From Candidatus Omnitrophota bacterium (GTDB lineage: Bacteria; Omnitrophota; Gorgyraeia; Zapsychrales; Fredricksoniimonadaceae), in the NCBI GenBank assembly GCA_903944345.1, contig CAJARJ010000021.1:5528-69527 (forward strand): 64,000 nucleotides of DNA. The letters run 5' to 3'. Positions 1-30,042 of this stretch are shown piece after piece; the first letter of the stretch is position 1; each line of letters begins with the position of its first letter. Below the pieces are notes generated by a model. The model saw nothing but the letters and a program-made list of their open reading frames with translations, did no database searches and was not told the origin of the DNA. Position numbers and translations under genes: made by a program.

Positions 1-697
1 ACGCCGCTCCAAGCAGCACGGAAGCTGCCATGGTTAAATCAGGTAGAACACAAAAAGGCATTGCATTCGCCAGAATGGCGCGCAGGCCTTGCTGGTTCAT
101 GTATAAGAGTGTTTTGAGAAGTTTTTGAAAAGCGGGGATTTCAGATCGGGGATCAGTCAAGGGAAGAGCCATTGGCCGGAAGAGCTCCCAGCTGTTAGGA
201 CGGAGAGTTTTTATAAACAGGAAATAGGCCGGAAGTCTGTCCAGCAGAGGTTGGGAGATAACTGTACCAACTCGGAAAATAGGAATAATTGTACGCAGTT
301 GGAAAAGATGGCGAATTTTTTCTGTAAAGGAATGCTGTGCATCATTGGTCAGTTCTTTCTCCGAGTCGGCATCATGGCCTTGCAGAGACACCAGAATGTT
401 GTCGACAGTCCTGGCCAGAACCTGGCGGGTGGCATCCGGAAGAATGGTTGCGTTGGTGTTTAGCAGAACATAAAAGCCCATTTGCTTGGCCAGCGAGAGC
501 ATTTGGAGCAGTTCGGGATGAAGCAGGGGCTCTCCACCGGTAAAGCGAACTGCACGGATGCCGAGAGCGAGTGCTTCGTCAAGAACGGTGCGCACTTGGG
601 CAAAGGAAAGTTCGGTGTGGGCTTGTTTGATGCCGGTGCAATAACGACAGGAAAGGTTGCAGCGGGCGGTGATTTCAAAAACAATCTCGTTGGGCAT
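1..697 (-). CDS. Radical SAM domain protein, partial (C-terminus lies beyond the window start); not in the ORF track because the ORF is open at the window edge
   Basis: Reverse-strand translation from the ATG at ~695-697 reads MPNEIVFEITARCNLSCRYCTG...FTGGEPLLHPEL..., i.e. a CxxxCxxC rSAM cluster motif followed by a GGEP SAM-binding motif. The ORF runs off the window with no stop. Confidence 0.6.
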   Translation of the reverse strand, partial: MPNEIVFEITARCNLSCRYCTGIKQAHTELSFAQVRTVLDEALALGIRAVRFTGGEPLLHPELLQMLSLAKQMGFYVLLNTNATILPDATRQVLARTVDNILVSLQGHDADSEKELTNDAQHSFTEKIRHLFQLRTIIPIFRVGTVISQPLLDRLPAYFLFIKTLRPNSWELFRPMALPLTDPRSEIPAFQKLLKTLLYMNQQGLRAILANAMPFCVLPDLTMAASVLLGAA

Positions 698-1103
698 ATC
701 TATAACAGGCTGTATCCGGGACAATGGATAGGAAGATTTTGCCGGCCAGCCGGGGCACTTTCCCTGCAGACAACAACTGCCGCAGGCCTCAATGGTTCGG
801 GTTGTTTGTTTTCTGAGCCCTGGATAAAGGATGCGGTGTCGGGCATAAGGCAGGAAGCAGAAAGGGACGCCTCGCAATACAAGAAAATGGGTGTCCTTAA
901 CGCTGAGCCAGACAAGTTCCAGTATTTTGTATATGGTTGGAGTGAGTTGGCCGGCATCGACGTCAAGGCAAAGGAAAAGATTCTCGGAGGTGACAAGAAT
1001 ATTATGTCGCTTGAGCAGCTTGGCTAGACTTGGGTAAGAGTTTGGGTAGTTCATGGAAGGAACATTATAACATAGCCGGGGTCGTGTCAAAGGGGCGGGC
1101 ATA

Positions 1104-12237: not shown

Positions 12238-12408
12238 AACCCGGCTAACTGGAGCATGAGAGGAATAGATATTCGTTATTGTCTGAAATGGTTATATTTA
12301 TAGCATTTCTTGCCTGGGAGCCAGCAAATGTATAGTATTCTTTCAGGAAAGGAGAATGGAAAGCCTTTTCTGTTTTGTCTCTGAGCAGCCAACATTGAGT
12401 GGTCTTGC

Positions 12409-12456: not shown

Positions 12457-13005
12457 ATGCTCAAACTATTGATTTCCATTGTTTTGTATTTTTTCTCGTG
12501 CGCAGCGGCTTGGTCGGAGGAAATTATTCTGACCACCTTTTATCCGCCCCCTAGCGGGCAGTTTTTGAATCTGACTGTGTTGGGCACTTTGGGTGTAGTG
12601 AACATCAATATTACGGGAACACTGACTATCGCCACTTTAAATGTCACGGGGAATGCTTCAGTTGGTGGAACTTTGAATGCTCGCAATACAACGCTTGGCG
12701 CAACGCTGAACGTGACCGGGGCCACAACTCTTGCCAGCACCCTGAGTGCCGGAGCCACCTCGATTAATGGGACATTGAACGTGAGTGGGCTAACAACGCT
12801 GGGTGCTCTGAGTGCTGCAGCCACCACGGTTAACGGGACTTTGAATGTGACCGGGGCCACCGTAATTACTGGCGCGTTAAATGCTCGGGCGACGACAGTT
12901 AACGGGACTCTGAATGTGAGCGGGGCCATGACCAGTGGTGGGATGTCCGCAGGAGGTTTTACGACAGCGGGGACAACCCAATGCGGTTCTTTGAATCTGT
13001 ATTGA
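12457..13005 (+). CDS. Secreted Thr/Asn/Gly-rich tandem-repeat protein (predicted beta-solenoid and/or glycoprotein)
   Basis: Signal peptide MLKLLISIVLYFFSCAAAWS, then conserved TTFYPPPSGQF, then repeats of the type (A/T)TT(I/V)NGTLNVTG(A/V)TTL. Most Asn lie in N-x-T sequons. Confidence 0.6.
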   Translation: MLKLLISIVLYFFSCAAAWSEEIILTTFYPPPSGQFLNLTVLGTLGVVNINITGTLTIATLNVTGNASVGGTLNARNTTLGATLNVTGATTLASTLSAGATSINGTLNVSGLTTLGALSAAATTVNGTLNVTGATVITGALNARATTVNGTLNVSGAMTSGGMSAGGFTTAGTTQCGSLNLY

Positions 13006-13089
13006 AGGTTGATCTTTTGGGATCTTCTTTTCGGAAACGCCTTGCGTGTGTTTTATGCAAATGTTAAGCTTTGTATTAGAAAGGGTCGC

Positions 13090-13644
13090 ATGGCAAAAAT
13101 CTGGGGTTTACTGCTTTTTATAGTTCTCTCCGCTAGCAGAGCCTGGTCGGATAACCTGGTTTTGACTACATTTTATCCGGCTCCAAACGGGCAGTATTTC
13201 AATATGAATGTAACGGGCACTCTGTCGGCCAATAATCTGACAGTTACCGGAACATTGACCGCTGCCACATTGAATGTGACCGGAAACATGACCGTTGGTG
13301 GTGCATTGAGTGTTACCGGGGCCACAACAATCAACGGGACGTTAAACGTAACGGGGGTCACAACGCTGAATGTTTTGAATGCCCGTAATACAACAATTAA
13401 TGGGACGTTAAACGTAACGGGGGTCACAACCCTTAGCACTCTGATTGCGGCCGCCACAACAATCAACGGGACGCTGAACGTGACCGGGGCCGCAACGCTT
13501 GCCAGCACTCTAAGTGCCGGTGCGACAACGGTGAACGGTGGGCTGGGTGTTACCGGAAATTCGACAGTAGGCGGCACGGTAACTGCCACCGGGTTTACAA
13601 CAGGGGGAACCCTGACGACCAATCGGCTGATTATTTGTCCCTGA
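13090..13644 (+). CDS. Secreted Thr/Asn/Gly-rich tandem-repeat protein, paralog of 12457..13005
   Basis: Start moved to the internal ATG at 13090, which has an AAGGG RBS (track ORF starts at 13009). Signal peptide MAKIWGLLLFIVLSASRAWS; conserved TTFYPAPNGQY; ~22-aa repeats VTGxTTLxxLxAxxTTINGTLN; 13 of ~21 Asn in N-x-T. Confidence 0.6.
   Translation: MAKIWGLLLFIVLSASRAWSDNLVLTTFYPAPNGQYFNMNVTGTLSANNLTVTGTLTAATLNVTGNMTVGGALSVTGATTINGTLNVTGVTTLNVLNARNTTINGTLNVTGVTTLSTLIAAATTINGTLNVTGAATLASTLSAGATTVNGGLGVTGNSTVGGTVTATGFTTGGTLTTNRLIICP
13230..13560. repeat. Intragenic near-identical tandem DNA repeats (~33 and ~66 nt units) encoding the NGTLNVTG repeats
   Basis: The units GGGACGTTAAACGTAACGGGGGTCACAAC and AACGGGACG(C/T)T(A/G)AACGT(A/G)AC(C/G)GGGG recur within 13.3-13.5 kb. 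A similar set lies at 12.6-12.93 kb in the upstream paralog. Confidence 0.55.
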
Positions 13645-13653
13645 TTCCATCAA

Positions 13654-14091
13654 ATGCGGGAGAACTTCATGAAGAAATTATTGCAAACGGCGGGCTGGGT
13701 CAGGCTGCCGGTTCAAACAGCTGTTTATCCTGTGCAGACAATTTATTCTGCCGGGTATGTTTTTCTAGATCGGGCCTATTTCTATCTGGAACCGGATGGC
13801 AAGAATGCTGTGTCCGTATGGATGAGTCCAAAAAAGAAAACAGATGATCTGGAATTGCTGGCCAAGGAGTTTTATCAGGAATTGCTTAATTACGCGCACT
13901 ATTTTATCAGCCTTAAGTCTAATGGAGATCACGTCAGGCTTTTGTTGCAGAGAGCGCTTTTTTCTGCCGCGCCTTCATTGGTCAAGGAGGCTGAAGAGCG
14001 CGAAATTCAGCAACTGATCAAGGAACTGGAGCAGGAGGATTTGTCGGCTTCGAAGAAGAAACAGAGCAAGAAGCCACCCGCTTCGACTTAG
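13654..14091 (+). CDS. Hypothetical protein (possible HxsD-like accessory protein of the maturase cassette)
   Basis: 145 aa, with a hydrophilic, Lys/Glu-rich C-terminus. It is first in the co-directional run 13654 > 14122 > 15092 > 16485 > 16933 with short gaps or overlaps. The functional call rests on position only. Confidence 0.35.
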   Translation: MRENFMKKLLQTAGWVRLPVQTAVYPVQTIYSAGYVFLDRAYFYLEPDGKNAVSVWMSPKKKTDDLELLAKEFYQELLNYAHYFISLKSNGDHVRLLLQRALFSAAPSLVKEAEEREIQQLIKELEQEDLSASKKKQSKKPPAST

Positions 14092-14121: not shown

Positions 14122-15111
14122 TTGATTATGAGCGTTGCGATTGCCCCGGAGATGCAGAATCTTTTTAGCAGGCCGGCAGAAAAATTTGCCAAAAGAGTGG
14201 TTGTTTTTACAGGATTCAATTGTTCCAATAAATGCTGTTTTTGTGCGGTTGAGTCTAAGCGTCCGGCCGTAGATAAGACGACCGAAGAAGTTCTGCGGGA
14301 GATGGCGCGTGCTTACGAGCGGGGCGCCCGGCAACTGGTGCTTTCCGGAGGGGAATGCACTTTAAGAAAAGATATTGTTGATTTGGTGCGGGCCGCCCGT
14401 CAAAAAGGCTTTGTGGATGTGCATATTCAGAGCAATGGTCGAAGGTTTTCTGATATCGGGTTTTGCAAGGAAATGTTTGCGGCAGGCATGAGTTATCTAG
14501 GGACATCGATTCATGGCCCTAGCGGCGCGGTGCATGATGATTTGACCGCAAGGCCGGGCAGTCTGCGTGAAGTTGTTGAAGGCATTCATAATCTTAAAAG
14601 GCTTGCCCGGGGACGTATTGGCATTGCGATTAACTCGGTCATGGTCCGGCAGAATTTTGCTTTATTACCAGAGACAGCCAGTCTTTTAGTCAGATTACGG
14701 CCGGATTTGCTGCAGTTCGCGTTTGTGCATGCTTGCGGCTTTACAGAAGAGCGTTTCAGAAGATTTGTTCCCAGAAAGACGGACGTTGTTGCCTATGTCA
14801 AGCAGGGAGTAGATATAGCTGTTGGCGCAGGGATTCCGGTTATGGTGGAGGCAATTCCTTACTGTCTTTTGACCGGCTATGAGAAGCATTGTTCGGATCG
14901 GTTTATTCCCTCTACGGATGTGATTGAGCCGGGACGGGAAATTTTGAATTACGAGCAGGTTCGGCTTCGCAGCAGCAAACGCAAGTTTGCCCGTTGCCTG
15001 GACTGTCGTTTTGATGCGATTTGTGAAGGGCCGTGGCAGCAGTATCCTGAGCATTATGGAGATGAGGAATTCCAACCGGTAGAGGCAGAGTATGTCAACC
15101 AGAGAGCTTGA
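14122..15111 (+). CDS. Radical SAM protein (HxsC-like candidate)
   Basis: FNCSNKCCFC cluster motif; SGGECTL SAM-binding block; C-terminal Cys pairs (CLDCRFDAIC). Overlaps the next gene by 20 nt. Confidence 0.75.
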   Translation: MIMSVAIAPEMQNLFSRPAEKFAKRVVVFTGFNCSNKCCFCAVESKRPAVDKTTEEVLREMARAYERGARQLVLSGGECTLRKDIVDLVRAARQKGFVDVHIQSNGRRFSDIGFCKEMFAAGMSYLGTSIHGPSGAVHDDLTARPGSLREVVEGIHNLKRLARGRIGIAINSVMVRQNFALLPETASLLVRLRPDLLQFAFVHACGFTEERFRRFVPRKTDVVAYVKQGVDIAVGAGIPVMVEAIPYCLLTGYEKHCSDRFIPSTDVIEPGREILNYEQVRLRSSKRKFARCLDCRFDAICEGPWQQYPEHYGDEEFQPVEAEYVNQRA

Positions 15112-16501
15112 GTTTTTTGTTGTTCCCTACAACTCGAAGAAAATAGGCCAGCGGCATCTTGTGTCCAACAAGCTAGGCGGGTGGGCTTTTCTTGATCACA
15201 AGGACTTTGCGACGCTTTCTTCTCTGGATTGTCAGCCCGGCACGGAGCTTTTTGAGCGTTTGCGAAACGCCGGGGTGGTGGCGGATGTATCTAATATCGG
15301 GTCTTTGTTGAGCGGTTACCGCAAAATGAACCAGAATCTTTTTTCAGATACCAGTCTGCACATTGCAGTCGTGACGACTCGTTGCAATTTGGCCTGTCAA
15401 TATTGTCAGGCTCGGCCAGAGTCGGGCGAGGATATGTCCCCTGAGGTTGCCTCACGTGTCCTGAAATATCTTTTTGATGTCCGCAATCCTTCGGTCATGC
15501 TGGAATTTCAGGGCGGGGAGCCGCTAATGAATTGGCCGGTTGTTTCTCTTTTAACGGAGCATGCGCGCAAATTCAATACGTCCGGCAAGCAGTTGCAGAT
15601 TGCCATGGTCAGCAATTTCTTATTGTTGACCGAGGAGCAGATCAAGTTTCTTGTCGAGCACGAGGTTAATCTTTGTACGTCTCTGGATGGGCCGGAAGAT
15701 TTACATGATCAGAACCGGAAGGATTGGGCTGGCAAGGGGACTTACAAGGAATTAATGCGCAAAGTGGATCTTGTGCGCAAGAAATTCAACTGGCCGGTGC
15801 ACATGCTTCCGACGATTACCAGAGCTTCGCTCAAACACGCGCGCCGGATTATCGATGAGTATGTGCGTCAGGGGCAGCTGGAAATCTGCCTGCGTCCAGT
15901 GAATGATATGGGGGCGGCGCGTTGTTCCTGGAAGAGTCTGGGATATACGCCGGAAGAGTTTCTTGCTTTCTATCGGGAAGCCTGCGAATATATTTTTGAG
16001 TTGAATCGCAAGGGGATTGCCGTTCGGGAGCGAATGGCCAGAGTTCTTATGACCAAGGCTCTTTTTAAAGAAGATCCGCGCTATGTAGATGTGATGAATC
16101 CCTGTGGGGCCGGCAGAGTGGTTATGACGTATATGCCGGATGGTGGCTGCTTTCCTTGTGACGAAGCCCGGATGGTAGGCGGGGATCTTTTTAAACTGGG
16201 GAATATTTTAAAGGACGACTATAAAGATGTTATTTGTAGTGAGAACCTTTTGAATCTTTTGCAGTCTTCCTGTTCGGATCTTTGGCAAAGCGCTTCAGTT
16301 TACAGCCCTTGGACGGGATATTGTCCGGTCGTTAATTACGCGACTCAGCAGAATGTGATTGCAAAGTCAGCCTGTTCCCAGGCCCAGAGAATTTTGGAGG
16401 GGCAGTTTGATTATCTTTTCGAGAAACTGGAACAGGGTGGGGAAAACGAAATGTTTTTAAGGGAATGGGCGAAAGGAATGGCGCATGAAGAAAAAAAATA
16501 A
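15092..16501 (+). CDS. Radical SAM / SPASM-domain peptide-maturase-like protein (HxsB-like candidate)
   Basis: TTRCNLACQYCQ preceded by a ~90-aa N-terminal extension that may bind the precursor; GGEPLMN block. C-terminal auxiliary-cluster Cys pattern CGAGRVV...DGGCFPCDE...WTGYCPV...CS, typical of SPASM enzymes (anSME- and sactisynthase-like). Overlaps the start of the first precursor. Confidence 0.8.
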   Translation: MSTRELEFFVVPYNSKKIGQRHLVSNKLGGWAFLDHKDFATLSSLDCQPGTELFERLRNAGVVADVSNIGSLLSGYRKMNQNLFSDTSLHIAVVTTRCNLACQYCQARPESGEDMSPEVASRVLKYLFDVRNPSVMLEFQGGEPLMNWPVVSLLTEHARKFNTSGKQLQIAMVSNFLLLTEEQIKFLVEHEVNLCTSLDGPEDLHDQNRKDWAGKGTYKELMRKVDLVRKKFNWPVHMLPTITRASLKHARRIIDEYVRQGQLEICLRPVNDMGAARCSWKSLGYTPEEFLAFYREACEYIFELNRKGIAVRERMARVLMTKALFKEDPRYVDVMNPCGAGRVVMTYMPDGGCFPCDEARMVGGDLFKLGNILKDDYKDVICSENLLNLLQSSCSDLWQSASVYSPWTGYCPVVNYATQQNVIAKSACSQAQRILEGQFDYLFEKLEQGGENEMFLREWAKGMAHEEKK

Positions 16502-16916
16502 TCAGCAGCAAGCGCGCCCGAGAATTCCGCGTTCTCTGAGGCTATTTATCCGGGATGAAGAGGGGTTTGTCAGCAAAGAAACTATTTTGAATGTCGGATT
16601 GACGGCGATAGGTGTGGTCGGGCTGTTGGGAATTTCTTCTGATGTGGTCAATGCCGCGCACTCCAGTCACGCTTCACATTCCAGTTCCGGTGGCGAACAT
16701 GGCAGCACGACAATACCGGGGACAAGCTATGCCATGACCGCGCATATTAATGATGTTGTCTATCCCGCTACACCGGCCGGAGGATCCTGCATGGAGCTAA
16801 GTCCACCGACGCATTCCAATGTTGCGGCAACGCATTGCAACCGGGCGGCTGTGCATGGAAGCTCCATATCAACGCATACGAATGTTACGCCGCATGCAAA
16901 TCATGACTCGTATTAG
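16485..16916 (+). CDS. His-rich precursor-like protein A1 (His-Xaa-Ser/Asn triplets; HxsA-like)
   Basis: 143 aa. Basic N-region MKKKNNQQQARPRIPRSLRLFIRDEEGFVSKET, hydrophobic segment ILNVGLTAIGVVGLLGI, a VNA|AHS site, then a core AHSSHASHSSSGGEHG...GGSCMEL...THCN...HANHDSY with 11 His in 88 aa and 2 Cys. Confidence 0.65.
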   Translation: MKKKNNQQQARPRIPRSLRLFIRDEEGFVSKETILNVGLTAIGVVGLLGISSDVVNAAHSSHASHSSSGGEHGSTTIPGTSYAMTAHINDVVYPATPAGGSCMELSPPTHSNVAATHCNRAAVHGSSISTHTNVTPHANHDSY

Positions 16917-16932
16917 CAAAGCGAGAGGATAT

Positions 16933-17355
16933 ATGAAAATAGACAAGACCAAAAGCAGGATTTTCAAGGCCCCGCGGACGCTAAAAGGATTTCTTGACGG
17001 AGAAGATGGCTATGTCAGCAAGGAAGCTATTTTGAATGTCGGATTGGCCACGATTGGCGTTTTGGGGGTGATGGGATCTTTTTCCGACCCGGCTTATGCC
17101 GCGCACAGCAATCATGGTTCGCATAGCAATGGAGCCGGGACTTTTCATGCCAATGCCTCGGCAGGGCATGTCAATACGGCTGTGGCGCATAGTAATCTGC
17201 AGCATTATGATGATTTCCCATCCGGTGGGTGCCGCGAGTTGCTGCCGGATCACAACAATATTGCTGCGGCGCATTGCAATGTTGGGGCCACGCATTCCAA
17301 CATTCCGGGCACACATGGCAACACCAGCGGGCACGCCAATCATTCCTCGTATTGA
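16933..17355 (+). CDS. His-rich precursor-like protein A2, paralog of A1
   Basis: Start placed at the ATG at 16933, which has a GAGAGGA RBS (track ORF 16819 is a spurious 5' extension overlapping A1). N-region and hydrophobic segment ILNVGLATIGVLGVMG are near-identical to A1; AYA|AHS site; core AHSNHGSHSNGAG...GGCREL...AHCN...HANHSSY with 13 His in 87 aa and 2 Cys. Confidence 0.65.
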   Translation: MKIDKTKSRIFKAPRTLKGFLDGEDGYVSKEAILNVGLATIGVLGVMGSFSDPAYAAHSNHGSHSNGAGTFHANASAGHVNTAVAHSNLQHYDDFPSGGCRELLPDHNNIAAAHCNVGATHSNIPGTHGNTSGHANHSSY

Positions 17356-17426: not shown

Positions 17427-18398
17427 ATGGATTTTCCATATCTTGATTCTGCTGATACCCCTCAGATTGCGGCATTATGGCTCAGGAACAATTATGCGCC
17501 CGCCGTTCCTCGAACCCAATTGATCGAGCATATTCGCTGGAAATATGATTCCCGACGAGCTGTGATTTACAGCCAAAGGGAAGAGGGCCGGATTTTTGCC
17601 ACAACAGGCTACTTAAAGGGATCTTTCTGCAATGGAAACAGCATTTTTAGTATTGGTTGGGGCATGGACTCTCTGATTGATGAGCCGTTAAGAGATGGTC
17701 GTGTGTTTGCCTTTATGCGTGTATTGCGCTCTACCATGCGTTCTGCCGAGCACGAAATTCTGGTTGCTTTTGCCAACAAGAACGTTCACGACACCTATTT
17801 ACGGATTGGTTTCCAGCCTTGGAATGGTTTTTTCTTTTATCAGGCAAAGCTGCAAGCCGGGATGGTGCTGCCAGTTCGACCCGACAGGGGGTTTGATCTT
17901 TTATGGAAAGATGAGCTGGATGTGTCGGGGGCTGAAGCTCTGTTCAGGCGAACGCAGGGGTTTTATCAGGGGATCAGTCCGAGAGACAAGGAATATCTGG
18001 ACTGGCGTTATGGTCAATGTCCTTTTCGTCGGCATGTGTTTCTGCATGTTTATCGGCAAAGGGTTTTGGTTGGATATTGTGCGGTACGCTTTGTTTTGCA
18101 ACCGGAATCGCGGACAGGCTATATTGTGGATCTTCTGGATTCTCCCGACGATGATGCCGTGCTGGAGGTTATGTTGCTGGAGCTTATGGCACGTTGCCGG
18201 CAGCGAGAAATTGCGCAGATCGAAACTGTTTTGACGAATGGGCGGATTTCACAGGGACTGTTGCGTTGTGGATTTTTTCGGCAGCAGCAGGAAACTGTGT
18301 TGGTGTGGCTGAAGAGTGACCGGGCACGCAGGTTTTTTGAACAGGGTTCGACAGGCATGCATTTGACGATGAGTGACGGCGATTATGATATGGAATAA
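17427..18398 (+). CDS. Hypothetical protein, possibly a GNAT-fold / FemAB-like acyltransferase
   Basis: 323 aa. The C-terminal half has a GNAT-like topology (VGYCAVRF...GYIVDLL...LELMARCRQREIAQIE); I recognised no diagnostic motif. Confidence 0.3.
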   Translation: MDFPYLDSADTPQIAALWLRNNYAPAVPRTQLIEHIRWKYDSRRAVIYSQREEGRIFATTGYLKGSFCNGNSIFSIGWGMDSLIDEPLRDGRVFAFMRVLRSTMRSAEHEILVAFANKNVHDTYLRIGFQPWNGFFFYQAKLQAGMVLPVRPDRGFDLLWKDELDVSGAEALFRRTQGFYQGISPRDKEYLDWRYGQCPFRRHVFLHVYRQRVLVGYCAVRFVLQPESRTGYIVDLLDSPDDDAVLEVMLLELMARCRQREIAQIETVLTNGRISQGLLRCGFFRQQQETVLVWLKSDRARRFFEQGSTGMHLTMSDGDYDME

Positions 18399-19296
18399 GT
18401 TAGGTAGTGGGCAAGGTTCGCAATGGCCCCGGAAGGAGAAGAGTATGGTTGGCGTTCACCGCAAGCCGCTGGATATAGAAGAAATGATGACAACGTGCGG
18501 CGGGTTTGTACGCTATTTTGGCACCAATGAACCGGTGTCGCATATTGCCAGTGTCCTGGAGAAAACAGTATTCCGTCGGGTTTTGGCTTGCTGTGGAGGA
18601 GGGGATCAGGCTTTGACATTGCTCGGGCTGGCGGGGCGCCCTTCAGAAATTTATGCGTTTGACATGAATCTGGCGCAGCTGTTTGTTCTGGCCTGCAAGG
18701 CCCAGCTCTTCAAGGATAAGAAAATGAAGACGTATGCTCCTTCTTTCGATCGGATCAGCCGGTTGAACATGGGAAGAATTCGCGCCCTTCCTAATGATGT
18801 TCGGCCCGTGGATACGCTGCTGACTATTCCAGGAGAAAGAAAGATTGCGCTGGAACATGTTTTTGCCGGCCGGTTTGGCTACGAGGTCGACACCGGGATG
18901 CACGATTTTCTCAAGAAGAATATTTACTGGGCAGATGATGCGCGTTTTATTTCCAGGATTCGTTCCGGATTGCCGGCGCTTAAAGGAATTCATTGTGATT
19001 TGCTTTCCTTGTCGGACTGGTTTGCGCCGGATTATCTCGATGTGATATATGTGTCGGATATCCCTTTGCACAATGCTATTCCTTATTATCTGGAAAGACT
19101 GCGTTGCCTGGTGGATTGTCTGGCGCCGGGTGGATTGTTTATTGGCAATCTGGAGGATCAGGCGGTTCTGGATCGCTGCCCGTCGGTGATTGAGGTGATG
19201 CGCAGTTATAAGGATTTGTTCGGGTTAGTGGAGTTCAGGAAAACAGGACAAATTCTGGCTTTACGCAAGGTGCGGCCTGTCAGAAGTATTGGATAA
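18373..19296 (+). CDS. DUF3419 / BtaA-like class-I SAM-dependent protein (paralog of 8413..9246)
   Basis: GGFVRYF, VLACCGGGDQALTLLGLAG, AFDMNLAQLFVL and LDVIYVSDIP blocks. Confidence 0.45.
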   Translation: MTAIMIWNKLGSGQGSQWPRKEKSMVGVHRKPLDIEEMMTTCGGFVRYFGTNEPVSHIASVLEKTVFRRVLACCGGGDQALTLLGLAGRPSEIYAFDMNLAQLFVLACKAQLFKDKKMKTYAPSFDRISRLNMGRIRALPNDVRPVDTLLTIPGERKIALEHVFAGRFGYEVDTGMHDFLKKNIYWADDARFISRIRSGLPALKGIHCDLLSLSDWFAPDYLDVIYVSDIPLHNAIPYYLERLRCLVDCLAPGGLFIGNLEDQAVLDRCPSVIEVMRSYKDLFGLVEFRKTGQILALRKVRPVRSIG

Positions 19297-20668
19297 AAGA
19301 ACGATGCCCCGAGAAATTGCTGTCATTTTTTTTGCGCAGGATGACCGTGTTGTGCCGGTGGATTTGGTTGAGGCCATTGCCTGGTTGGAACAGTCGGGAA
19401 TCAGGCACAAGCTTTACATGCCGGCACGCGGGAAAAGAGGCAGCTGGCGGCAAGCTGTTGCTGAAACTTTGAGCGGAGTCCAGGCGGATGAAGTGTTTGT
19501 ATGTTTTTTGAATGAAAATCATTATCTGGCAACAGCGTCTTTACTTCAGCTGGTCTTTTGTGCAGAGTTTCTCGGGGATAGAGATATTCATGTCTGCCTG
19601 CCGGCTTTAAGTTTGTTTAGGGGGCGGCCTGCGTTGCGGGGGCGTTTTGTCTGGCACGCAAAGAAACTGACGCAGGTTCTTGGTGAACGGCTGGACGGGT
19701 TGAAAAAAGAGCGGTTATTCTCACCGGAAGTCCTTGCCGATGTCACGGTTCGTCTCGGATACAGAAGACAGATCCTTTCGGCTCTCTGGTCGCCGGGGTG
19801 CGGGCACAGCTGTTCGTTTTGTTTTTCCCGTGACAACGGAGAAATGATTGAGCCTGATGCCGGCATTCGTCAGGAAAAACTAGTTTTTCTGCTTGAGCTG
19901 GCGCGTTTAACCGAAGCAAGTTGTTTTAAATTTCGTGATCCTGACTTTCTGGGAGTTCCCGCTAACGCCTGGGAGGCGTTGCGGATTCTTGGTTCTGTCG
20001 CTCCGGGTACAGCGTTTAGATGTAACGCACGACTGGAAGACCTCAATAGAGAGGCACTTGTGCGTCTTGCGGACGCCGGATGCTCCCAGGTATTTTCCGG
20101 TGTGGAGCATGTTTCGATGCGCCTGGTGGAGGCGACAGGAAAACAGGAGAAAGTTCTCGGTCTATTAGCGGGCGTGTTGGCCCATAAACCCCGCAAGATG
20201 GATCTTGCCTTGTCTTTTCTGGCCGGCCTTCCGGGAGAGACCTTGCCGGAGGCGAAGGATAATTTGTGTTTGATCAGGAAGTTAATGAAGTTGAAGGGGG
20301 TTAAACCATATCTTGGGTATTATGTTTTGTTTGCCCAAGAGGTCCGGTCAGGGGCTTTTTTCGATCCCTTGCTGGCTTGCCTGAATTTTTCGGCGATTGT
20401 TCCCGAGGGCATGTTTCTGGATTATCAGGATTATTGTGGCCTGCTAAAGACAGTTAGAGAAGATGCTTTTTTCAGTTTTTTTGCTGCTGCCCTTAATCGA
20501 AACAGCGCTGAGGTTATTCGAATGTTGCTGCGCGAATTTAGCGCGGACGCATGCTTGTCTGAGTGCATGCCGATGGCTAGAAAACTGCTTCTGTTGCGCC
20601 CGGAGCTGGCCAATAGAATAATGAGTGAGCTTGGTGCGCCAACGTTTTTGTGCAGGGGGGCTGTGTGA
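19289..20668 (+). CDS. B12-binding-domain radical SAM protein (paralog of 9233..10660)
   Basis: PGCGHSCSFC cluster motif after a ~165-aa N-terminal domain; FKFRDPDFLG and FSGVEHVSMRL blocks shared with the paralog. Confidence 0.65.
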   Translation: MDKRTMPREIAVIFFAQDDRVVPVDLVEAIAWLEQSGIRHKLYMPARGKRGSWRQAVAETLSGVQADEVFVCFLNENHYLATASLLQLVFCAEFLGDRDIHVCLPALSLFRGRPALRGRFVWHAKKLTQVLGERLDGLKKERLFSPEVLADVTVRLGYRRQILSALWSPGCGHSCSFCFSRDNGEMIEPDAGIRQEKLVFLLELARLTEASCFKFRDPDFLGVPANAWEALRILGSVAPGTAFRCNARLEDLNREALVRLADAGCSQVFSGVEHVSMRLVEATGKQEKVLGLLAGVLAHKPRKMDLALSFLAGLPGETLPEAKDNLCLIRKLMKLKGVKPYLGYYVLFAQEVRSGAFFDPLLACLNFSAIVPEGMFLDYQDYCGLLKTVREDAFFSFFAAALNRNSAEVIRMLLREFSADACLSECMPMARKLLLLRPELANRIMSELGAPTFLCRGAV

Positions 20669-22155
20669 TCAGATTGGCTGTTGACAAAAAAGTTTCATTG
20701 TCCTCTCTGTGCCCGAAACAGGATTTTTTCGAGGTTCTCAATGGAGCCGGTATCGCGGCTTTTGATGAGCGCGGTTTTTTTAATCGTGTTTATGCGCGGG
20801 AGGCCCTGGAGCTTTATCAGCGGCACGAATTGGGGGCTCTCAGGCAGATAGCCAGCCGGGGGGCAGTGCTTGTTTGTGATGAGGTTCGACAGAGACTGTT
20901 TCTTGTGGCAGACAGCGCCGGGCATTCGACTTTTTATTATCTGTTGCGGCAGGGAGAGCTGATTTTTTCCAGTCGGCTTCAGGAACTGGATGAGTATTTT
21001 CGTTTTGACTTGAGTGAACGCTCTACCGATGAATATCTGGCCTGTGGTTTCATAAGTTCTCCGTTGACCGTTTTTGATGGTGTAGGAAAACTTCCTCCCG
21101 GAGGATATTTATTGCTTGAAAATGGCCGGGTTCAGGTTTCTGTTTGTCGAAAGACAAAGATTCCTGCCAGCGATAAAGTATCGGATAACTATCAACGAGA
21201 GCTTGAGGCTGCTTTTGAGAGTTGCCTGGCTCGAACGGCGGATGCTCCGTCCGGGTTGATGCTCAGCGGTGGTTACGATTCTTCTCTTTTAGGGGAGCTT
21301 CTATTGCGCCGTTACGGTCGGCTGCGGACCTGGGTCGTTGATATGATGGGGTATAATGCGGCAACTGTCCGTCAAGCCCAGGAAATGTCGCGCATTCTGG
21401 GGACAGACCATTCTTGTATTCCGGTGAGTGCCCGTGATTATATGGGATATTTCAGAAAGGCGCTCGGATTGGTTGAGGAACCGCTGCTTGACCTGGATTT
21501 TCCGGTTATTCGTCAGGCGGTGCTGGCGATAGGGAACAAGGCCCAATATGTTTGGCATGGATTTGGCAGTGACGAGGTTTTGGGAGAAAGGGTTATTGAT
21601 TTCAAGGGGGCGCTTACTCTTTTTGCCGCACAAAAAGGGAGGTCATCCTGGAAAGGGAAGATATCTGTGCGTCAGATCGGGCAGGCTTTTCTTGCCACCA
21701 AAGTTCCCCAGGAATTGCGGGCGCATTATCGTTTATGCGAAGCAAGCGGAACTTGCCTGGTTTTTCCGTTTTTTGAACCGGAACTGATTAGTGTGGCAGC
21801 CCGGATGCCAATTAATCTGATGAAAAATAAACGGCTTCTACGAGGGATGTCTTCCCGTCTTCATCAGCTTCTGCCTGTGCAGCCAAGAGAGGAGCGGGGG
21901 CAGATGCCGGCGCTGATCAAGCATGTGCTGATTGAAGGGCACAAGGAGTCCTTGCTGGCGGACAGTTTTCTGGCAGTTTTTATAAAGAAGAACGGCGCTT
22001 CTGCAATTTTTGAGCGCAAGAGTGAAGATTTGCTTTTACGGATGATAGTTTTTCTTGTCTGGAAGCAGGAAAGAGATCGTCGCTTGTCGCTGGTTTTTTT
22101 TGACCCGCGGAGTTCGGGGGCCAGCAGGGGAGAAATAAGTGTTGCCCGCGATTGA
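20650..22155 (+). CDS. Asparagine synthetase (AsnB)-like amidotransferase homolog, full length
   Basis: 501 aa; PP-loop LMLSGGYDSSLLGELL at ~residue 205; HGFGSDEVLGE block. The N-terminus MQGGC is not a canonical Cys-2 Ntn glutaminase start, so it may be a non-glutaminase family member as in lasso-peptide-cyclase-type AsnB homologs. Confidence 0.6.
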   Translation: MQGGCVIRLAVDKKVSLSSLCPKQDFFEVLNGAGIAAFDERGFFNRVYAREALELYQRHELGALRQIASRGAVLVCDEVRQRLFLVADSAGHSTFYYLLRQGELIFSSRLQELDEYFRFDLSERSTDEYLACGFISSPLTVFDGVGKLPPGGYLLLENGRVQVSVCRKTKIPASDKVSDNYQRELEAAFESCLARTADAPSGLMLSGGYDSSLLGELLLRRYGRLRTWVVDMMGYNAATVRQAQEMSRILGTDHSCIPVSARDYMGYFRKALGLVEEPLLDLDFPVIRQAVLAIGNKAQYVWHGFGSDEVLGERVIDFKGALTLFAAQKGRSSWKGKISVRQIGQAFLATKVPQELRAHYRLCEASGTCLVFPFFEPELISVAARMPINLMKNKRLLRGMSSRLHQLLPVQPREERGQMPALIKHVLIEGHKESLLADSFLAVFIKKNGASAIFERKSEDLLLRMIVFLVWKQERDRRLSLVFFDPRSSGASRGEISVARD

Positions 22156-27381: not shown

Positions 27382-28584
27382 TTAAGGTTTCAGGATTTCG
27401 ATGGTGCGGGCTGTTCCGGTAAACCATTCTTGCGGCGGCGCGGGAAAGTTTCCAGGTTTTTCGCATTTCTCTCGTATTGCTGCTGCCAGTGTTGCGGGTT
27501 CCAGTTCGTGATAGTTAAGGACAGTGCTGTTGATCCGTTCCTTGAGTAACAGGGCCCGGGATTGCTGGTCGTTGGCGGGTTCATTCTGGGTTTTATTAAT
27601 ATATGGAACGATTATGCTTTGCGTTCCCGAGGTCAATAGTTGTACGGAAGTGTTGTAGCCGCACATGCTGATTGACAGCTGGCAGGAGCGCATGAGTTGA
27701 GCCAGTCCGGGGACGTGGTCAAAGAGGCGGATGCGGCTGCGATCCGATAAAGACAGGCAGGCCTCGAAGAGTTTTTTTTCTTCAGGGGTTGTTGAGGGAC
27801 CGCAGGCGATGGTCATGCGATACTTTTCACCCAGATGCTTGTGCGCCCGGATGGCACAGGCAATTATATTAGGGTAAACCGCCCCGCCCCCCCGGCTGAT
27901 AACAATATGATATGGTGCCGGATGCGGCCAATTAATGATTTGTGGCGGGCAGGGATCTTCAGCTGGAAGGACATAGCCGGTATAAGTGATTTTATCCCGG
28001 ATACGTTCAAAGAACTGGTCGTAGCCTGTCTGCAATTCGGGTTTTGCCAGAACTGTTCGAAGATAAGGATTTTCCAGTTGAGGAGGGGTGTGGATCAGCA
28101 ACTGGTCATAGAGGCCGATCAGGCGTATGGTCAGATCCATATCGCCCGACTTGGCCAGATTATAGATTTGAATCAGAAAAGGATAGCCGATACTGGCATA
28201 GATTTTTTTTCCGCATTGGCGTAGATGGCGTAAGGCCGGCAGCAGTTCCGGCGTGTAGTCCGCCCGTCCGAAAGGAAAAAATTCGGTTACGAAGATGTCA
28301 GGATTAACACTGCGGACTGTTTTCATAACGAACTCGCAGCGCAGGGGCAGAGATGTTGCGCTGCGCCCGCCGTGGAAGCTGAGTCGGGAATCGAATGGAT
28401 AAGGAATTGGGTGCAGGCCAACATTCTTTGGAAAGCGGATTGCGGGTTGCTCGGTTCCGGCCTGCAGAAGATGCACGCGGACTCCTGCCCGGGAGAGTCC
28501 ATGGCAGAGGGCGTGAACCCGGGTGCTGTGTCCCAGAGTGCCTTTGTGGGTGTAGTGAATCAGTACCGAGGGTTTCTTTTGCAT
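27382..28584 (-). CDS. GT1-family glycosyltransferase (MurG/MGT-like fold)
   Basis: Start placed at the internal M (MQKKPSVLIHYTHKGTLGHSTR), which gives the Gly/His-rich N-terminal loop typical of GT-B GT1 enzymes. The 448-aa track ORF would otherwise overlap the divergent CorC gene. Confidence 0.5.
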   Translation of the reverse strand: MQKKPSVLIHYTHKGTLGHSTRVHALCHGLSRAGVRVHLLQAGTEQPAIRFPKNVGLHPIPYPFDSRLSFHGGRSATSLPLRCEFVMKTVRSVNPDIFVTEFFPFGRADYTPELLPALRHLRQCGKKIYASIGYPFLIQIYNLAKSGDMDLTIRLIGLYDQLLIHTPPQLENPYLRTVLAKPELQTGYDQFFERIRDKITYTGYVLPAEDPCPPQIINWPHPAPYHIVISRGGGAVYPNIIACAIRAHKHLGEKYRMTIACGPSTTPEEKKLFEACLSLSDRSRIRLFDHVPGLAQLMRSCQLSISMCGYNTSVQLLTSGTQSIIVPYINKTQNEPANDQQSRALLLKERINSTVLNYHELEPATLAAAIREKCEKPGNFPAPPQEWFTGTARTIEILKP

Positions 28585-28707
28585 GTTATCGGAATGTTGA
28601 TTACAATGATGCAACAGCTTGCTGTACGAACGGTTTGATCGGAGCCCCCCGATAATTATAGAGCTTGAGTTTAATTCTATATATTTAGAACAAGGAACAT
28701 TGGAATC

Positions 28708-30042
28708 ATGATAAACAGTTTTGCGCAAATTGTCATAATCTTTTTGATGTTGTTGTTAAATGCCGTATTTGCTGCGTATGAAATGGCTCTGGCCTCTGTT
28801 TCCCAGTCCCGGCTTAACGCTTTATCTGCTCGTCAGGTCAAGGGCGGAGCGGAGGCCGCATTTATGAAGTCCAGGATTGAGGCCAGCCTGGCAGTTATCC
28901 AGATGGGGATTACCCTGGTGGCCGCGATTGCAGCGGCAACCGGGGGGTTGAGTGCAGTGGATTCTTTTGCTCCGTGGCTGGTGAAAGAGCTTGGCTGGCA
29001 CAAGACCCTGGCCGGAATGGTGGCGGTGATTATTGTTGTAATTCCCCTGAGCAGCGTAACGATTATTTTTGCCGAGCTGGTTCCCAAAATGCTTGCGCTT
29101 AACTATCGTGAGCGAGTGTGTTTGCGGCTGTCACCATTGATGAAAAGGCTTTTTCTTTTCTTGCATCCGGTGGTCAATGTATTTGAGCGGATTGTCAAAT
29201 GGCTGGTGCAGGCAGGAAGCAGACATTTCCCCGGACGTTCGTCTGCAGAAGAGTCCCCTGGACTGCATGAACTTCAGGCTGCTGCGGCTTTGGCGCGAAC
29301 GGCACGCCTGATCGGAGCACATCAGGAGAAAATTCTTTTGTCCGCGGCCCAGCTGTCTGCCCGGCAGGTGCGGGAGATACTTATCCCTTTATCGGAAGTG
29401 TCAACTATTCCGTCGACATTTACGCTCAGTCAGGCTTTGGTTCGGGCGCATCTGGATATGCACACCCGGTTTCCTGTCTGTCGGCAGGAAGGCGATTCTC
29501 AGAGTATCGACGGGTATGTGAATTTCAAGGATATTATTTCGGCCTTGCGCCTGAATCCGGAAGATCCTTCGGTTTGCGGGATTGTCCGGCCGCTCAAGAG
29601 CGTTGAGGCAGAACGCACCATTTCTGCGGTTCTGGAAATCATGATTCAGGAAAAGATGCACATTATTCTGGTTTGTTCGCGAGGTGGCCGGTATCTGGGA
29701 ATTGTGACGCTTGAGGATATTATTGAGGAATTGGTCGGAGAGATCGAGGATGAGTTTGATCGTCTGCCGGCCTATATTCATGCCTTTGCCGGAGGCTGGA
29801 TTGTTGGCGGGGGAACTTTAATGGAAAATATTTCCGGCGCGGCGGGTTTGTCCGGGACATTTCTCCCGGGAGAGCGCCTGGCCGATTGGTGTCTGCGACA
29901 GATCCCCGGAGGCAATCTTGAGGGTGGGCAGACGATCGAGGCCGATGGGTTGCGTGTAAGCTTGCGCAAGTTTCGCCGGCATAAGGTTAGTGAAGCGGCG
30001 ATTGCGCGGACACGTGAGGGAATAAAGGATGCACGGATGTAG
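28708..30042 (+). CDS. CorC/HlyC (TlyC) family transporter-like protein: DUF21/CNNM TM domain + CBS pair + CorC_HlyC domain
   Basis: N-terminal 4-TM DUF21 (AAYEMALASVSQSRL), a CBS-pair region (GIVTLEDIIEELVGEIEDEFD), and a C-terminal transporter-associated domain. Confidence 0.8.
   Translation: MINSFAQIVIIFLMLLLNAVFAAYEMALASVSQSRLNALSARQVKGGAEAAFMKSRIEASLAVIQMGITLVAAIAAATGGLSAVDSFAPWLVKELGWHKTLAGMVAVIIVVIPLSSVTIIFAELVPKMLALNYRERVCLRLSPLMKRLFLFLHPVVNVFERIVKWLVQAGSRHFPGRSSAEESPGLHELQAAAALARTARLIGAHQEKILLSAAQLSARQVREILIPLSEVSTIPSTFTLSQALVRAHLDMHTRFPVCRQEGDSQSIDGYVNFKDIISALRLNPEDPSVCGIVRPLKSVEAERTISAVLEIMIQEKMHIILVCSRGGRYLGIVTLEDIIEELVGEIEDEFDRLPAYIHAFAGGWIVGGGTLMENISGAAGLSGTFLPGERLADWCLRQIPGGNLEGGQTIEADGLRVSLRKFRRHKVSEAAIARTREGIKDARM

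Follow-up and report, generated by a model that had tools for sequence, protein, structure and literature searches.

The N-terminal region of the two small, His-rich precursor proteins pA1 and pA2 is not only long but also conserved as a module, as read from the sequences of their family, and this module matches the leaders of Flp-type prepilins, to which it would be either homologous or convergent. The proteins are encoded in a cassette (HxsD, HxsC, HxsB, pA1 and pA2) that is, when judged by its family matches, a divergent His-Xaa-Ser (Hxs) radical-SAM (rSAM) system with HxsA3-type precursors. The conservation of the n-region across 93 protein clusters and its in-register match with the Flp leaders are the new results of this analysis. 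The prepilin-like leader, when considered together with the A24 peptidases linked to the cassette in related loci, points to a route for the processing and export of modified proteins that has not been described before, and there is an even chance that an A24 peptidase cuts the leader of pA1 and pA2 at its glycine once the protein is inserted in the membrane. The window is the whole 64,000-nt stretch of DNA that was analysed, from contig CAJARJ010000021.1 (GCA_903944345.1) of a Candidatus Omnitrophota bacterium, in which the cassette is laid out as follows.

13654..14091, plus strand: HxsD-like small protein, 145 aa (TIGR03976, 35.2 bits, cutoff 50)
14122..15111, plus strand: HxsC-like radical SAM protein, 329 aa (best NCBIfam matches; PF04055 Radical_SAM)
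15092..16501, plus strand: HxsB radical SAM/SPASM maturase, 469 aa (TIGR03978, 368.9 bits, cutoff 370)
16485..16916, plus strand: pA1, HxsA3-type precursor, 143 aa (NF038309 HxsA3, 39.9 bits, cutoff 65)
16933..17355, plus strand: pA2, paralogous HxsA3-type precursor, 140 aa (NF038309, 33.2 bits; alignment; homolog P0007)

All NCBIfam scores of the Hxs proteins of the window are below the curated cutoffs, including that of HxsB, which aligns with TIGR03978 over its full length (11-460) and also matches TIGR03942 and TIGR03906. A protein identical to this HxsB bears the HxsB name in a public source, and the HxsD gene of the related loci L001-L004, identical to that of the window, carries a PF27806 (HxsD) annotation, by which the small protein counts as HxsD. 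The 329-aa protein can be called HxsC-like by its best NCBIfam matches (HxsC4, 131.4 bits, cutoff 500; TIGR03977 HxsC, 95.5 bits, cutoff 267.9) and its position only, the curated HxsC cutoffs being missed. The NF038309 profile covers just the conserved N-terminal module of the precursors (residues 12-70 of pA1) and is matched by 86 of the 90 family members, with a best E of 2.8e-33. When considering the 31 tabulated related loci, both HxsD and HxsB directly adjoin the precursor in 24, at least one of them does so in all except L032, which is a cut locus, and the order HxsD-HxsB-precursor is seen with the exception of L012. The original prediction had discussed pA1 and pA2 in comparison with RiPPs; by the NCBIfam matches they are not orphan RiPP precursors but HxsA3-type proteins of a His-Xaa-Ser system. 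Pfam gives no match for the precursors, even at E<=10, and PADLOC gives none either, so that no sequence model backs their assignment to a pilin family, to a catalogued defence system or to the proteins with an extended signal peptide region.

In the E. coli HXS antiphage system (HxsA/B/C/D), rSAM maturation takes place in the cytoplasm and is followed by export to the periplasm, and the N-terminal processing of the precursor is described as "non-canonical" (Li et al., Nat Commun 2026, PMC13128918). The rSAM modification of the E. coli counterpart amounts to +8 Da on SHRSS. Modification before export, which the original prediction deduced for pA1 and pA2 and regarded as unusual for RiPPs, is therefore the norm for the Hxs family. 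The E. coli system and the window have a four-part cassette in common: an HxsB rSAM/SPASM protein, a second rSAM protein, HxsD, and a precursor of the His-x-Ser type that bears an export signal at its N-terminus. The window precursors differ in having a composite signal of 56-57 residues with a Flp-like leader, in lacking a peptidoglycan-binding domain, in H-x-S/T/N motifs that are mostly not in tandem and in occurring as two to three paralogs; the gene order is D-C-B-A in the window and D-B-C-A in E. coli. The E. coli system is antiphage; PADLOC has no match for the system of the window. When compared with the HxsA3 proteins of NF038309, pA1 and pA2 share the conserved N-terminal module, but have longer C-terminal halves with few true HxS repeats.

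The ATG of pA1 lies inside the 3' end of the HxsB gene, with an overlap of 17 nt. The true start of pA2 is ATG 16933, with GAGAGGA 6-12 nt upstream; the ORF lister placed it at 16819, which is in frame but further upstream and overlaps pA1, and the 140-aa homolog P0007 favours 16933. The two proteins are 46% identical and have 11 (pA1) and 12 (pA2) H-x-[S/T/N] motifs, of which only two to three are tandem HxS (AHSSHASHSS; AHSNHGSHSN), and a C-terminal HTNVT.H..SY block is conserved in the alignment. The His-rich core of pA1 (residues 58-143) is predicted by AF2 to be disordered, and pA1 as a whole has two Cys residues. The first 56-57 residues would form a composite signal, in which a basic leader is followed by a conserved, mostly polar segment of nine residues ([F/Y]VSKE.ILN) and by a hydrophobic helix of 15-17 residues, and the precursors are divided accordingly (a slash marks a candidate cleavage site).

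16485..16565, plus strand: pA1 residues 1-27, basic Flp-like leader to the invariant Gly27 (LRLFIRDEEG at its end)
16566..16640, plus strand: pA1 residues 28-52, polar conserved FVSKETILN, then the hydrophobic helix VGLTAIGVVGLLGISS
16641..16655, plus strand: pA1 residues 53-57, DVVNA, c-region with the candidate signal peptidase I site VNA57/A58, by reading of the sequence
16656..16913, plus strand: pA1 residues 58-143, His-rich core (from AHSSHASHSS to HTNVTPHANHDSY), presumed rSAM substrate
16933..17010, plus strand: pA2 residues 1-26, Flp-like leader to Gly26 (LKGFLDGEDG at its end)
17011..17100, plus strand: pA2 residues 27-56, YVSKEAILN, hydrophobic helix and c-region SFSDPAYA56/A57

The leader of pA1 has eight K/R within residues 1-27, followed by EEG27/F28VSKE32, and that of pA2 ends in EDG26/Y27VSKE31. 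The glycine at -1, the aromatic residue at +1 and the glutamate at +5 that had been read from these two proteins are thus present, and the glycine is invariant in 90 of 90 aligned members, being the sole invariant column of the alignment. The motif centred on it is the best conserved part of the family of 93 clusters, far above chance. The leader has 6-8 K/R, and F at -7 (74/90), D at -4 (70/90) and E at -3 (83/90) recur in the family; a scan of the genome collection with a seven-member alignment took in the G[FY]VSKE subfamily only. In the AF2 prediction of pA1 a helix at 18-26 is followed by a break at G27-S30. The family consensus, KSLKDFLKDEDG/FVSKENILK, is in register with the Flp prepilin leaders, KFVTRFLKDESG/ATAIEYGLI, when the two are compared with hhalign. 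An unanchored hhalign run against 113 Flp pilins brings FlkDE.G/....E into register with a score of 26.4 (P 4.8e-5), compared with 9.6±2.3 and a maximum of 17 for column shuffles, and when limited to -11..+9 the score is 23.7 (P 3.7e-7, probability 93%), which is reached by none of 60 shuffles. The n-region, earlier described as atypically long, is indeed long (about 33 residues ahead of the helix), but it is its conservation as a module matching Flp leaders, not its length alone, that characterizes it. With the Flp/Tad (type IVc) prepilins and the archaeal FlaK/PibD substrates the precursors share a leader whose length is about 20-30 residues and whose end reads F-[LIM]-K-D-E-x-G, with Gly at -1 and a hydrophobic helix beyond the site; pA1 and pA2 themselves also have Glu at +5.

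In every pilin class known to us the hydrophobic helix begins at +1, and this defining feature, about 20 hydrophobic residues from +1, fails in pA1 and pA2, as nine polar residues (FVSKETILN or YVSKEAILN) are inserted between the candidate cleavage site and the helix, with a mean hydropathy over +1..+9 of 0.14-0.32, versus 1.17 in Flp. Positions +3 to +9 are polar or charged family-wide (S/T in 71/90; K/R at +4 in 84/90 and at +9 in 76/90). The other defining feature, a conserved Glu+5, is seen in part of the family: it is present in pA1, pA2 and a third paralog, and in 48 of 90 members overall (K in 16, D in 13). Conserved Lys/Arg at +4 and +9 and a variable Glu+5 set this family apart from Flp prepilins. 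The precursors also differ from Flp prepilins by a signal peptidase I-like site after the helix and by the lack of a Pfam pilin match: the models Flp_Fap, TadE and N_methyl do not match pA1 or pA2 at E<=10, and the Pfam listings of the 90 members (E<=10) do not include them. Proteins other than pilins can also bear class III signals, as the archaeal sugar-binding proteins do.

These features make it quite improbable that pA1 and pA2 are true subunits of a type IV filament, which after A24 cleavage would be built or extruded by PilB/PilC-like machinery into a pilus-like fibre with the modified His-rich tail on its surface, because the conserved Lys/Arg at +4 and +9 and the polar residues +3 to +6 would fall in the buried core helix, and Glu+5 is not conserved. 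Such an assembly would agree with the genes found in some relatives. In 6 of 17 well-covered loci the gene for HxsD is immediately preceded by genes for two PilB-type ATPases (T2SSE + MshEN), for a platform protein of the PilC type and for a membrane protein with a coiled coil. In L027 the PilB/PilC-type genes have a copy of the precursor gene right after them, and no canonical pilin gene is found in the 10-kb flanks of the PilB/PilC-bearing loci; the flanks having been searched over 10 kb only, pilin genes could lie further off. The Pfam scans of the 64-kb window find no PilB/PilC-type ATPase or platform gene, which also argues against a filament subunit.

The case for cleavage at the glycine comes in part from the gene neighbourhood in the relatives, where a protein of about 295 aa beside the cassette matches PF01478 (34.9 and 31.1, gathering score 26.5). 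It is a putative A24 peptidase of the FlaK/TadV type, which retains both Asp motifs (T-D and GGDAKL). Like TadV, CpaA and FlaK it is small and without a methyltransferase domain, with the Asp residues at about 20 and 80 as in FlaK, and it differs from them by an extra insertion of roughly 130 residues; NCBIfam has no model for it. Of the 20 loci that are covered for 5 kb or more downstream, 11 carry the gene, as do three shorter loci (14 in total); in 9 of the 20 well-covered relatives there is no A24 gene within 10 kb. Four of the A24-bearing loci have no PilB-like gene within 7-8 kb, and other class III-like N-termini are absent from the A24/Hxs loci except in L036. The linked peptidases are only 26-34% identical to one another, which indicates that the linkage with the cassette is old, and since the relatives are all from one phylum the shared synteny is not fully independent evidence. 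A literature search found no link of HxsA3, radical SAM or Omnitrophota to prepilin peptidase.

Other genes of the window also have counterparts close to the cassette of the relatives, as listed below.

1..1102, minus strand: rSAM356-family radical SAM gene, 466 aa, 5' part only (phmmer E 1.9e-39 against the rSAM356 protein of L018)
17427..20668, plus strand: genes of 323, 307 and 459 aa, immediately 3' of pA2 (homologs in L018, L019, L035 and L038)
27382..28728, minus strand: glycosyltransferase with a GT28 C-terminal domain (PF04101; phmmer E 6.3e-52 against a 425-aa protein of L018)

The rSAM356 gene, which adjoins the A24 peptidase in relatives, extends past the left end of the window, its full ORF being seen in L040 at 12625-14025. 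Homologs of the 323/307/459-aa genes, for which NCBIfam and Pfam give no informative family, recur close to the Hxs/A24 cassette in relatives, the neighbours in L044 resembling them by gene size and Pfam content only. The glycosyltransferase is homologous to the 425-aa gene that comes after the precursor in most relatives. The counts from a scan for promoters and terminators at 12-18 kb of the window are at shuffle level.

A search for a prepilin peptidase, proposed earlier as a check, returned none for this genome region: the best A24-HMM match on any ORF of the 64-kb window has an E of 0.31, none is present in the 8 kb to its left, and among 24 A24 hits checked by contig none is on the 311,881-nt contig of the window. 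The earlier statement that the cluster contains neither a peptidase nor an ABC-transporter gene holds for the window and the 8 kb to its left. The prepilin reading is strengthened by the peptidase beside the cassette in relatives and weakened by the polar segment from +1 and the variable Glu+5.

After the polar segment follows a hydrophobic helix of 15-17 residues; AF2 predicts a helix at residues 31-55 of pA1 (pLDDT 88-89). The hydrophobic maximum is at 34-48 in pA1 (ILNVGLTAIGVVGLL), followed by SSDVVNA57/A58HS, and at 33-47 in pA2, followed by SFSDPAYA56/A57HS, such that the basic n-region, the hydrophobic helix and the AxA-type site originally read from both ORFs (VNA/AHS; AYA/AHS) are all present, the last as candidate signal peptidase I sites VNA/A and AYA/A. 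The sequences PRSLRLF, PRTLKGF and VKSLGEL have, by eye, no RR pair of a twin-arginine signal, and a lipoprotein signal is rejected by the lack of a Cys after the helix in pA1 or pA2.

The ambiguity between a Sec and a prepilin signal, as first noted from the two proteins, is real, and both readings are legitimate. The main alternative, conceivable if somewhat unlikely, is that these N-termini are long Sec class I signals only, with the motif of the n-region being a RiPP-style docking site for HxsB and/or HxsD that delays export until modification, signal peptidase I removing all 56-57 residues at once to give a soluble, modified His-rich peptide in the periplasm, and the A24 peptidase serving other substrates. 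The n/h/c anatomy is canonical save for the long n-region, as it comprises an h-region of 15-17 residues, an SSD or SFSDP breaker and small residues at -3/-1, in many members a small-x-small site is present 1-3 residues ahead of the first His, and no A24 gene is in the window. The closest solved structure to HxsB is CteB (5wgg), which aligns from residue 94 on, and the 93-aa N-terminal extension of HxsB ahead of the rSAM core sits where CteB carries its peptide-recognition domain. Long, conserved n-regions also have precedents, in the extended signal peptide region of autotransporters and in the KxYKxGKxW signals of glycosylated serine-rich adhesins. It is also in agreement with this reading that E. 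coli HxsA needs its signal peptide for periplasmic localisation (PMC13128918). The small-x-small site just ahead of the first His is, however, at shuffle level family-wide (61 of 89, versus a shuffled c-region mean of 54.5; not significant); selection on the site therefore cannot be shown, and the test is counted for neither reading. A Sec signal alone also leaves unexplained the single invariant Gly, the in-register Flp match and a divergent A24 peptidase that is linked even without pilus genes nearby.

The same helix would serve as an uncleaved signal-anchor if the precursors were single-pass type II membrane proteins, in which the cytoplasmic motif is kept for maturase recognition only. The strong positive-inside bias with a single hydrophobic helix, the one continuous, confident helix 31-55 of the AF2 prediction and the action of the E. 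coli effector near the inner membrane and cell wall (PMC13128918) fit with such a topology. It is nevertheless quite improbable, as a stable anchor would call for a longer helix than this one, in which Gly, Ala, Ser and Thr abound, and the invariant Gly and linked protease argue for cleavage.

Cleavage by an A24 peptidase is favoured by the invariant Gly, the in-register Flp leader match and the cassette-linked peptidase with both Asp motifs. It is weakened by the absence of an A24 gene from the window, the polar +3 to +9 residues, the presence of Glu+5 in just 48 of 90 members and the lack of a pilin Pfam match, as well as by the short helix and textbook c-region, as in cleavable Sec signals. 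The proposed route has four steps, the last three of which are inferred. By analogy with the E. coli system, HxsB, HxsC and HxsD would modify the His-x-Ser/Thr/Asn-rich C-terminal tail in the cytoplasm. The helix would then insert N-in/C-out via the general Sec/YidC route, as suggested by the eight K/R on its N-terminal side. A FlaK/TadV-type A24 aspartic peptidase, whose gene would have to lie outside the window, elsewhere in the genome, could next cut Gly27/Phe28 of pA1 and Gly26/Tyr27 of pA2, in line with the motif and the gene neighbourhood of the relatives. Finally, the helix would hold the modified tail at the outer surface of the cytoplasmic membrane, from which signal peptidase I may release it at VNA/A or AYA/A.

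A wider proposal, which is rather doubtful, is that the HxsA3-type proteins form a new class of class III-signal substrates, being rSAM-modified, His-rich and pilin-like. A dedicated FlaK/TadV-type peptidase would serve them as "RiPP leader protease", some Omnitrophota would use a motor of the PilB/PilC type to assemble or extrude the product into a surface fibre or a membrane-anchored array, and pA1 and pA2 would depend on a peptidase encoded elsewhere in the genome. When compared with other exported rSAM substrates, the anaerobic sulfatase maturases AtsB/anSME and QhpD, acting on QhpC, are SPASM-type rSAM enzymes related to HxsB, as its TIGR03942 and TIGR03906 matches show, and modify in the cytoplasm a protein that is exported later. 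Their substrates are enzymes or enzyme subunits that carry an ordinary signal or are served by a protease and an ABC exporter of their own, whereas pA1 and pA2 are small His-rich proteins with a prepilin-like leader.

Usually, rSAM-modified peptides are released by a dedicated leader protease and exported by an ABC transporter; export of an rSAM-matured protein by an Hxs system was first shown in 2026. If the HxsA3 branch does pair a leader of the prepilin type with an aspartic peptidase of the GxGD kind, this would provide a concrete processing route for these proteins, with a possible bearing on the "non-canonical" cleavage in E. coli, and it would link radical-SAM modification to the world of type IV filaments and prepilin peptidases, a link that is to our knowledge previously undescribed. 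Two other conserved genes of the cassette, as well as those of the precursors and the peptidase, at present go unnamed by annotation pipelines. For the Omnitrophota, bacteria of very small size that probably depend on hosts and about whose cell surface next to nothing is known, such a route would add a widespread, conserved surface feature.

The two paralogous precursor proteins, pA1 and pA2 (46% identity when aligned), are encoded behind three Hxs-like genes:

13654..14091, HxsD-like, first of the three genes upstream of pA1/pA2; best match an Hxs model, below cutoff
14122..15111, HxsC-like, upstream of pA1/pA2; best match an Hxs model, below cutoff
15092..16501, HxsB, upstream of pA1/pA2; TIGR03978, 368.9 bits against a cutoff of 370
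16485..16916, plus strand, pA1, 143 aa; ATG 17 nt within the end of the upstream gene
16933..17355, plus strand, pA2, 140 aa; GAGAGGA ribosome-binding site ahead of ATG 16933

The start of pA2 is placed at 16933 because of this ribosome-binding site and a 140-aa homolog (cluster P0007); the start at 16819 (178 aa) given by the ORF lister is an in-frame extension overlapping pA1 in another frame and was rejected. The same over-extension (window 16819-16932) occurs in some metagenome gene calls, with 166 aa in the related loci L002-L004. Given the Hxs model matches, the PF27806 HxsD record carried by an identical HxsD gene elsewhere and the name HxsB given to the maturase by one public source, the pA1/pA2 locus is, as judged from its sequence, a divergent His-Xaa-Ser system. 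The sole NCBIfam match of pA1 and pA2 is NF038309, 'His-Xaa-Ser repeat protein HxsA3', with 39.9 bits for pA1 and 33.2 bits for pA2 (cutoff 65), and it covers their N-terminal 60-70 residues.

The N-terminal features described in the original prediction are all present in pA1 and pA2: a basic N-terminus (8 K/R ahead of Gly27 in pA1), a Gly motif (EEG27↓FVSKE32 and EDG26↓YVSKE31, respectively, the arrow marking a candidate cleavage site), a hydrophobic stretch with its maximum at residues 34-48 and 33-47, and an AxA-type candidate signal peptidase I site (SSDVVNA57↓AHS and SFSDPAYA56↓AHS). In the family, small-x-small sites directly ahead of the first His number 61 of 89, near the mean of 54.5 obtained with shuffled c-regions. 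Six relatives were found by a word-based search and 93 clusters by an exhaustive profile search; among 90 full-length members, HxsA3 is matched by 86/90, HxsA4 by 13 and HxsA by 3. The only invariant column in the alignment of these 90 sequences is the Gly that had been marked as position -1.

Residues conserved around the invariant Gly (position -1) in the 90 full-length members
-7: F, 74/90
-6: L/M/I/V, 84/90
-5: K/R, 56/90
-4: D, 70/90
-3: E, 83/90
-2: D/S/E, 78/90
+2: V/I/M, 86/90
+3: S/T, 71/90
+4: K/R, 84/90
+5: E, 48/90 (K 16, D 13)
+8: L, 70/90
+9: K/R, 76/90
+11: G, 78/90

Beyond +11, the family has 15-16 uncharged residues followed by a stretch in which small residues abound. C-terminally the members differ widely, some having true HRSHSSHSS repeats and others Thr-rich or Cys-rich sequences, and the N-terminal module therefore behaves as a portable signal. 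In the AF2 model calculated with the family alignment, residues 18-26 form a helix that is followed by a break at G27-S30; a second helix, predicted with confidence, covers 31-55, and the tail is disordered. It is conceivable, if improbable, that the N-terminus is an uncleaved signal-anchor.

No Pfam pilin model matches the precursors at E<=10, nor is there one among the matches listed for the 90 family members. The family was compared with 113 Flp (type IVc) pilins gathered with Caulobacter PilA, all having PF04964, a narrow, Caulobacter-like set with an effective number of sequences of 2.4. The unanchored profile-profile comparison gives a score of 26.4 (P 4.8e-5) in the register proposed originally, aligning 'ikK.Lk.FlkDE.G.VSKe.ILKvGl' of the family with 'MsKFvtRFlkDESGATAIEYGLIVAL' of Flp, as compared with 9.6±2.3 (maximum 17) for 100 column shuffles and 14.5 for the reversed alignment. 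When the comparison is limited to -11 to +9, which removes any contribution of the hydrophobic helix, the consensus sequences are KSLKDFLKDEDG↓FVSKENILK (family) and KFVTRFLKDESG↓ATAIEYGLI (Flp), and the score is 23.7 (P 3.7e-7, probability 93%), all of 60 shuffles being at or below 13.1. By these scores against column shuffles, the leader is Flp-like well beyond chance. The segment after the Gly, as read from its residues, is not pilin-like: unlike in Flp pilins, +3 to +9 is polar with two conserved basic residues, the mean hydropathy of +1 to +9 is 0.14-0.32 in the window precursors and 1.17 in Flp pilins, and the Glu+5 of pilin signals is retained in just about half of the family. That the precursors are true filament subunits therefore seems a long shot, and it would be a special case of the Flp-like leader being cleaved, not an independent alternative.

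A scan of species-representative genomes provided 29 related loci, 22 titled Candidatus Omnitrophota and 7 titled Planctomycetales MAGs; these loci represent one phylum, were seen for 10 kb per side and do not include the window's genome. The gene order HxsD, HxsB, precursor, 245-aa protein, 425-aa protein is near-universal, and convergent to it are a radical SAM gene and the gene of a ~295-aa membrane protein. The latter is a predicted A24 prepilin-type peptidase because it scores 34.9 and 31.1 bits against PF01478 Peptidase_A24 (gathering score 26.5), retains the two catalytic motifs (T-D near residue 20, GGDAKL near residue 80) and has relatives named CpaA or FlaK by JGI. Of 20 distinct loci with 5 kb or more downstream, 11 have the A24 gene, as do 3 shorter loci; in four loci (L010, L011, L015 and L036) it occurs without a pilus ATPase within 7-8 kb upstream, and the cassette peptidases are mutually 26-34% identical. 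On these grounds the linkage of the A24 gene to the Hxs cassette is frequent and old. Of 17 loci with 7 kb or more of upstream sequence, 6 have, ahead of HxsD, two ATPases of the PilB type (T2SSE plus MshEN) and a PilC-type platform, together with small MshEN-like proteins and a coiled-coil membrane protein, and in locus L027 a second precursor copy lies directly 3' of PilB/PilC-like genes. Canonical pilins (KG↓FSLTELIIV…) occur in L036 only, illustrating how ordinary class III signals of this phylum look; the other cassette loci have no obvious peptidase substrate.

The unannotated 245-aa and 425-aa genes are almost always 3' of the precursor (10298-12248 in locus L018, with equivalents in 28-29 loci). 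The ~245-aa protein is Cys-rich and secreted, being internally duplicated in L031 and L038, and the 425-aa protein is glycosyltransferase-like; NCBIfam has no model for either or for the A24 peptidase. Of this pair, the window holds just the 425-aa homolog, displaced to 27382-28728.

The absence of a peptidase or ABC-transporter gene from the cluster, as originally described, is borne out: Pfam/NCBIfam scans of essentially all window genes and precomputed annotations turn up neither a peptidase nor an ABC-transporter gene in the window, nor any that is PilB/PilC-like or encodes a pilin, and none of the window ORFs is matched by an HMM derived from 13 of the cassette peptidases (best E 0.31), the covered portion of this genome being about 72 kb. 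Homologs of cassette neighbours are present:

1-1102, minus strand, homolog of the convergent radical SAM neighbour, cut by the left window edge
27382-28728, minus strand, homolog of the 425-aa glycosyltransferase neighbour
after pA2, genes of 323, 307 and 459 aa with homologs near the cassette in relatives

Locally, then, the peptidase gene is lacking in an otherwise recognisable neighbourhood. In locus L044, an A24 gene adjoins a cluster (several rSAM genes plus a DegT aminotransferase) that is like that of the window by gene sizes and Pfam content alone. A second Hxs cassette lies about 0.4-2.8 kb left of window position 1 (L040 14124-16479, minus strand), convergent with the radical SAM gene at the window edge; it comprises HxsD (138 aa), an ORF of 78 aa, a paralog of HxsB (476 aa) and a third precursor (99 aa; …LQEFLQDEDG↓FVSRESILKAGAVVVASVGAIGAV…, with the motif QDEDG↓FVSRES and the C-terminus HSNTHCSY). 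The lack of an A24 gene in the window, like the textbook h- and c-regions, would suit a long Sec signal cut by signal peptidase I only, in which the conserved n-region would serve to dock the maturase; we regard this as rather unlikely, as it does not account for the invariant Gly, the match to Flp or the linked peptidase.

The Hxs genes are within an unusually dense cluster (window 1-28728) with at least eight radical SAM genes beyond the Hxs pair (among them 5926-6996, 9233-10660, 19289-20668, 22139-23152, 24258-25376, 25373-26350 and 26289-27344), three asparagine-synthase-like genes, a DegT aminotransferase, a GT28-like transferase and a PMT_2-type membrane glycosyltransferase (10645-12237). 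Directly upstream of HxsD, 12457-13005 and 13009-13644 (plus strand) encode tandem paralogous secreted proteins of 182 and 211 aa. Their signal peptides are short and ordinary, and they have a TTFYP.P.GQ motif plus numerous 'GTLNVTG'-type repeats; neither matches a Pfam, NCBIfam or PADLOC family or has a homolog among the related loci. Further along, 32912-47466 holds ordinary glycogen/polyphosphate housekeeping genes (glycogen phosphorylase, branching-enzyme-like, GH57, Ppx/GppA, polyphosphate kinase and CHAD). Two adjacent very large plus-strand ORFs, 49395-53663 (1422 aa) and 53691-57818 (1375 aa), are almost devoid of Pfam matches, the sole one being a 34-residue PPDK_N-like stretch in the second.

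The E. coli Hxs prototype was characterised in 2026: its HxsA has a 22-residue signal peptide, is modified at an SHRSS motif (+8 Da) by HxsB, HxsC and HxsD, undergoes a non-canonical, rSAM-dependent N-terminal cleavage driven by the same proteins, and then counteracts the entry of phage DNA from the periplasm, using a peptidoglycan-binding domain (PMC13128918). The cytoplasmic site of maturation is the authors' inference, as HxsB/HxsC/HxsD were undetectable for localisation (PMC13128918). Cytoplasmic rSAM chemistry before export, as originally proposed for pA1/pA2, thus stands, but not as an anomaly, since it is established family behaviour (PMC13128918). In view of the peptidoglycan-binding domain of E. 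coli HxsA, a 200-aa protein with two PG_binding_1 domains just 5' of an nqr/rnf-type operon (57903-58505, plus strand), unrelated to the cassette, is also of note.

Both the Hxs system and the HxsA3 sequence family have been catalogued before. A literature search found nothing linking Hxs precursors, prepilin peptidase and these cassette genes, and no description was found anywhere of the HxsA3 N-terminus as a Flp-type prepilin leader, of its conserved linkage to a GxGD peptidase or, in some genomes, PilB/PilC-like genes, or of the two further conserved cassette genes (245 and 425 aa). We give about even chances to the following order of events, the likelihoods of the four readings discussed here not being strictly additive. 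By homology, the His-rich tail would be modified in the cytoplasm by HxsB, HxsC and HxsD, and the helix would then be inserted N-in/C-out, as its charge suggests. Cleavage of the Flp-like leader at Gly27 (pA1) and Gly26 (pA2) by a FlaK/TadV-type A24 peptidase, which would be encoded elsewhere in the genome, would come next, as suggested by the invariant Gly, the resemblance of the leaders and the linkage seen in relatives. The modified tail would finally be displayed on the outer face of the cytoplasmic membrane or set free at the site resembling that of signal peptidase I. If this is true, the 'missing' leader protease of the RiPP-like Hxs system would be a prepilin-type peptidase.
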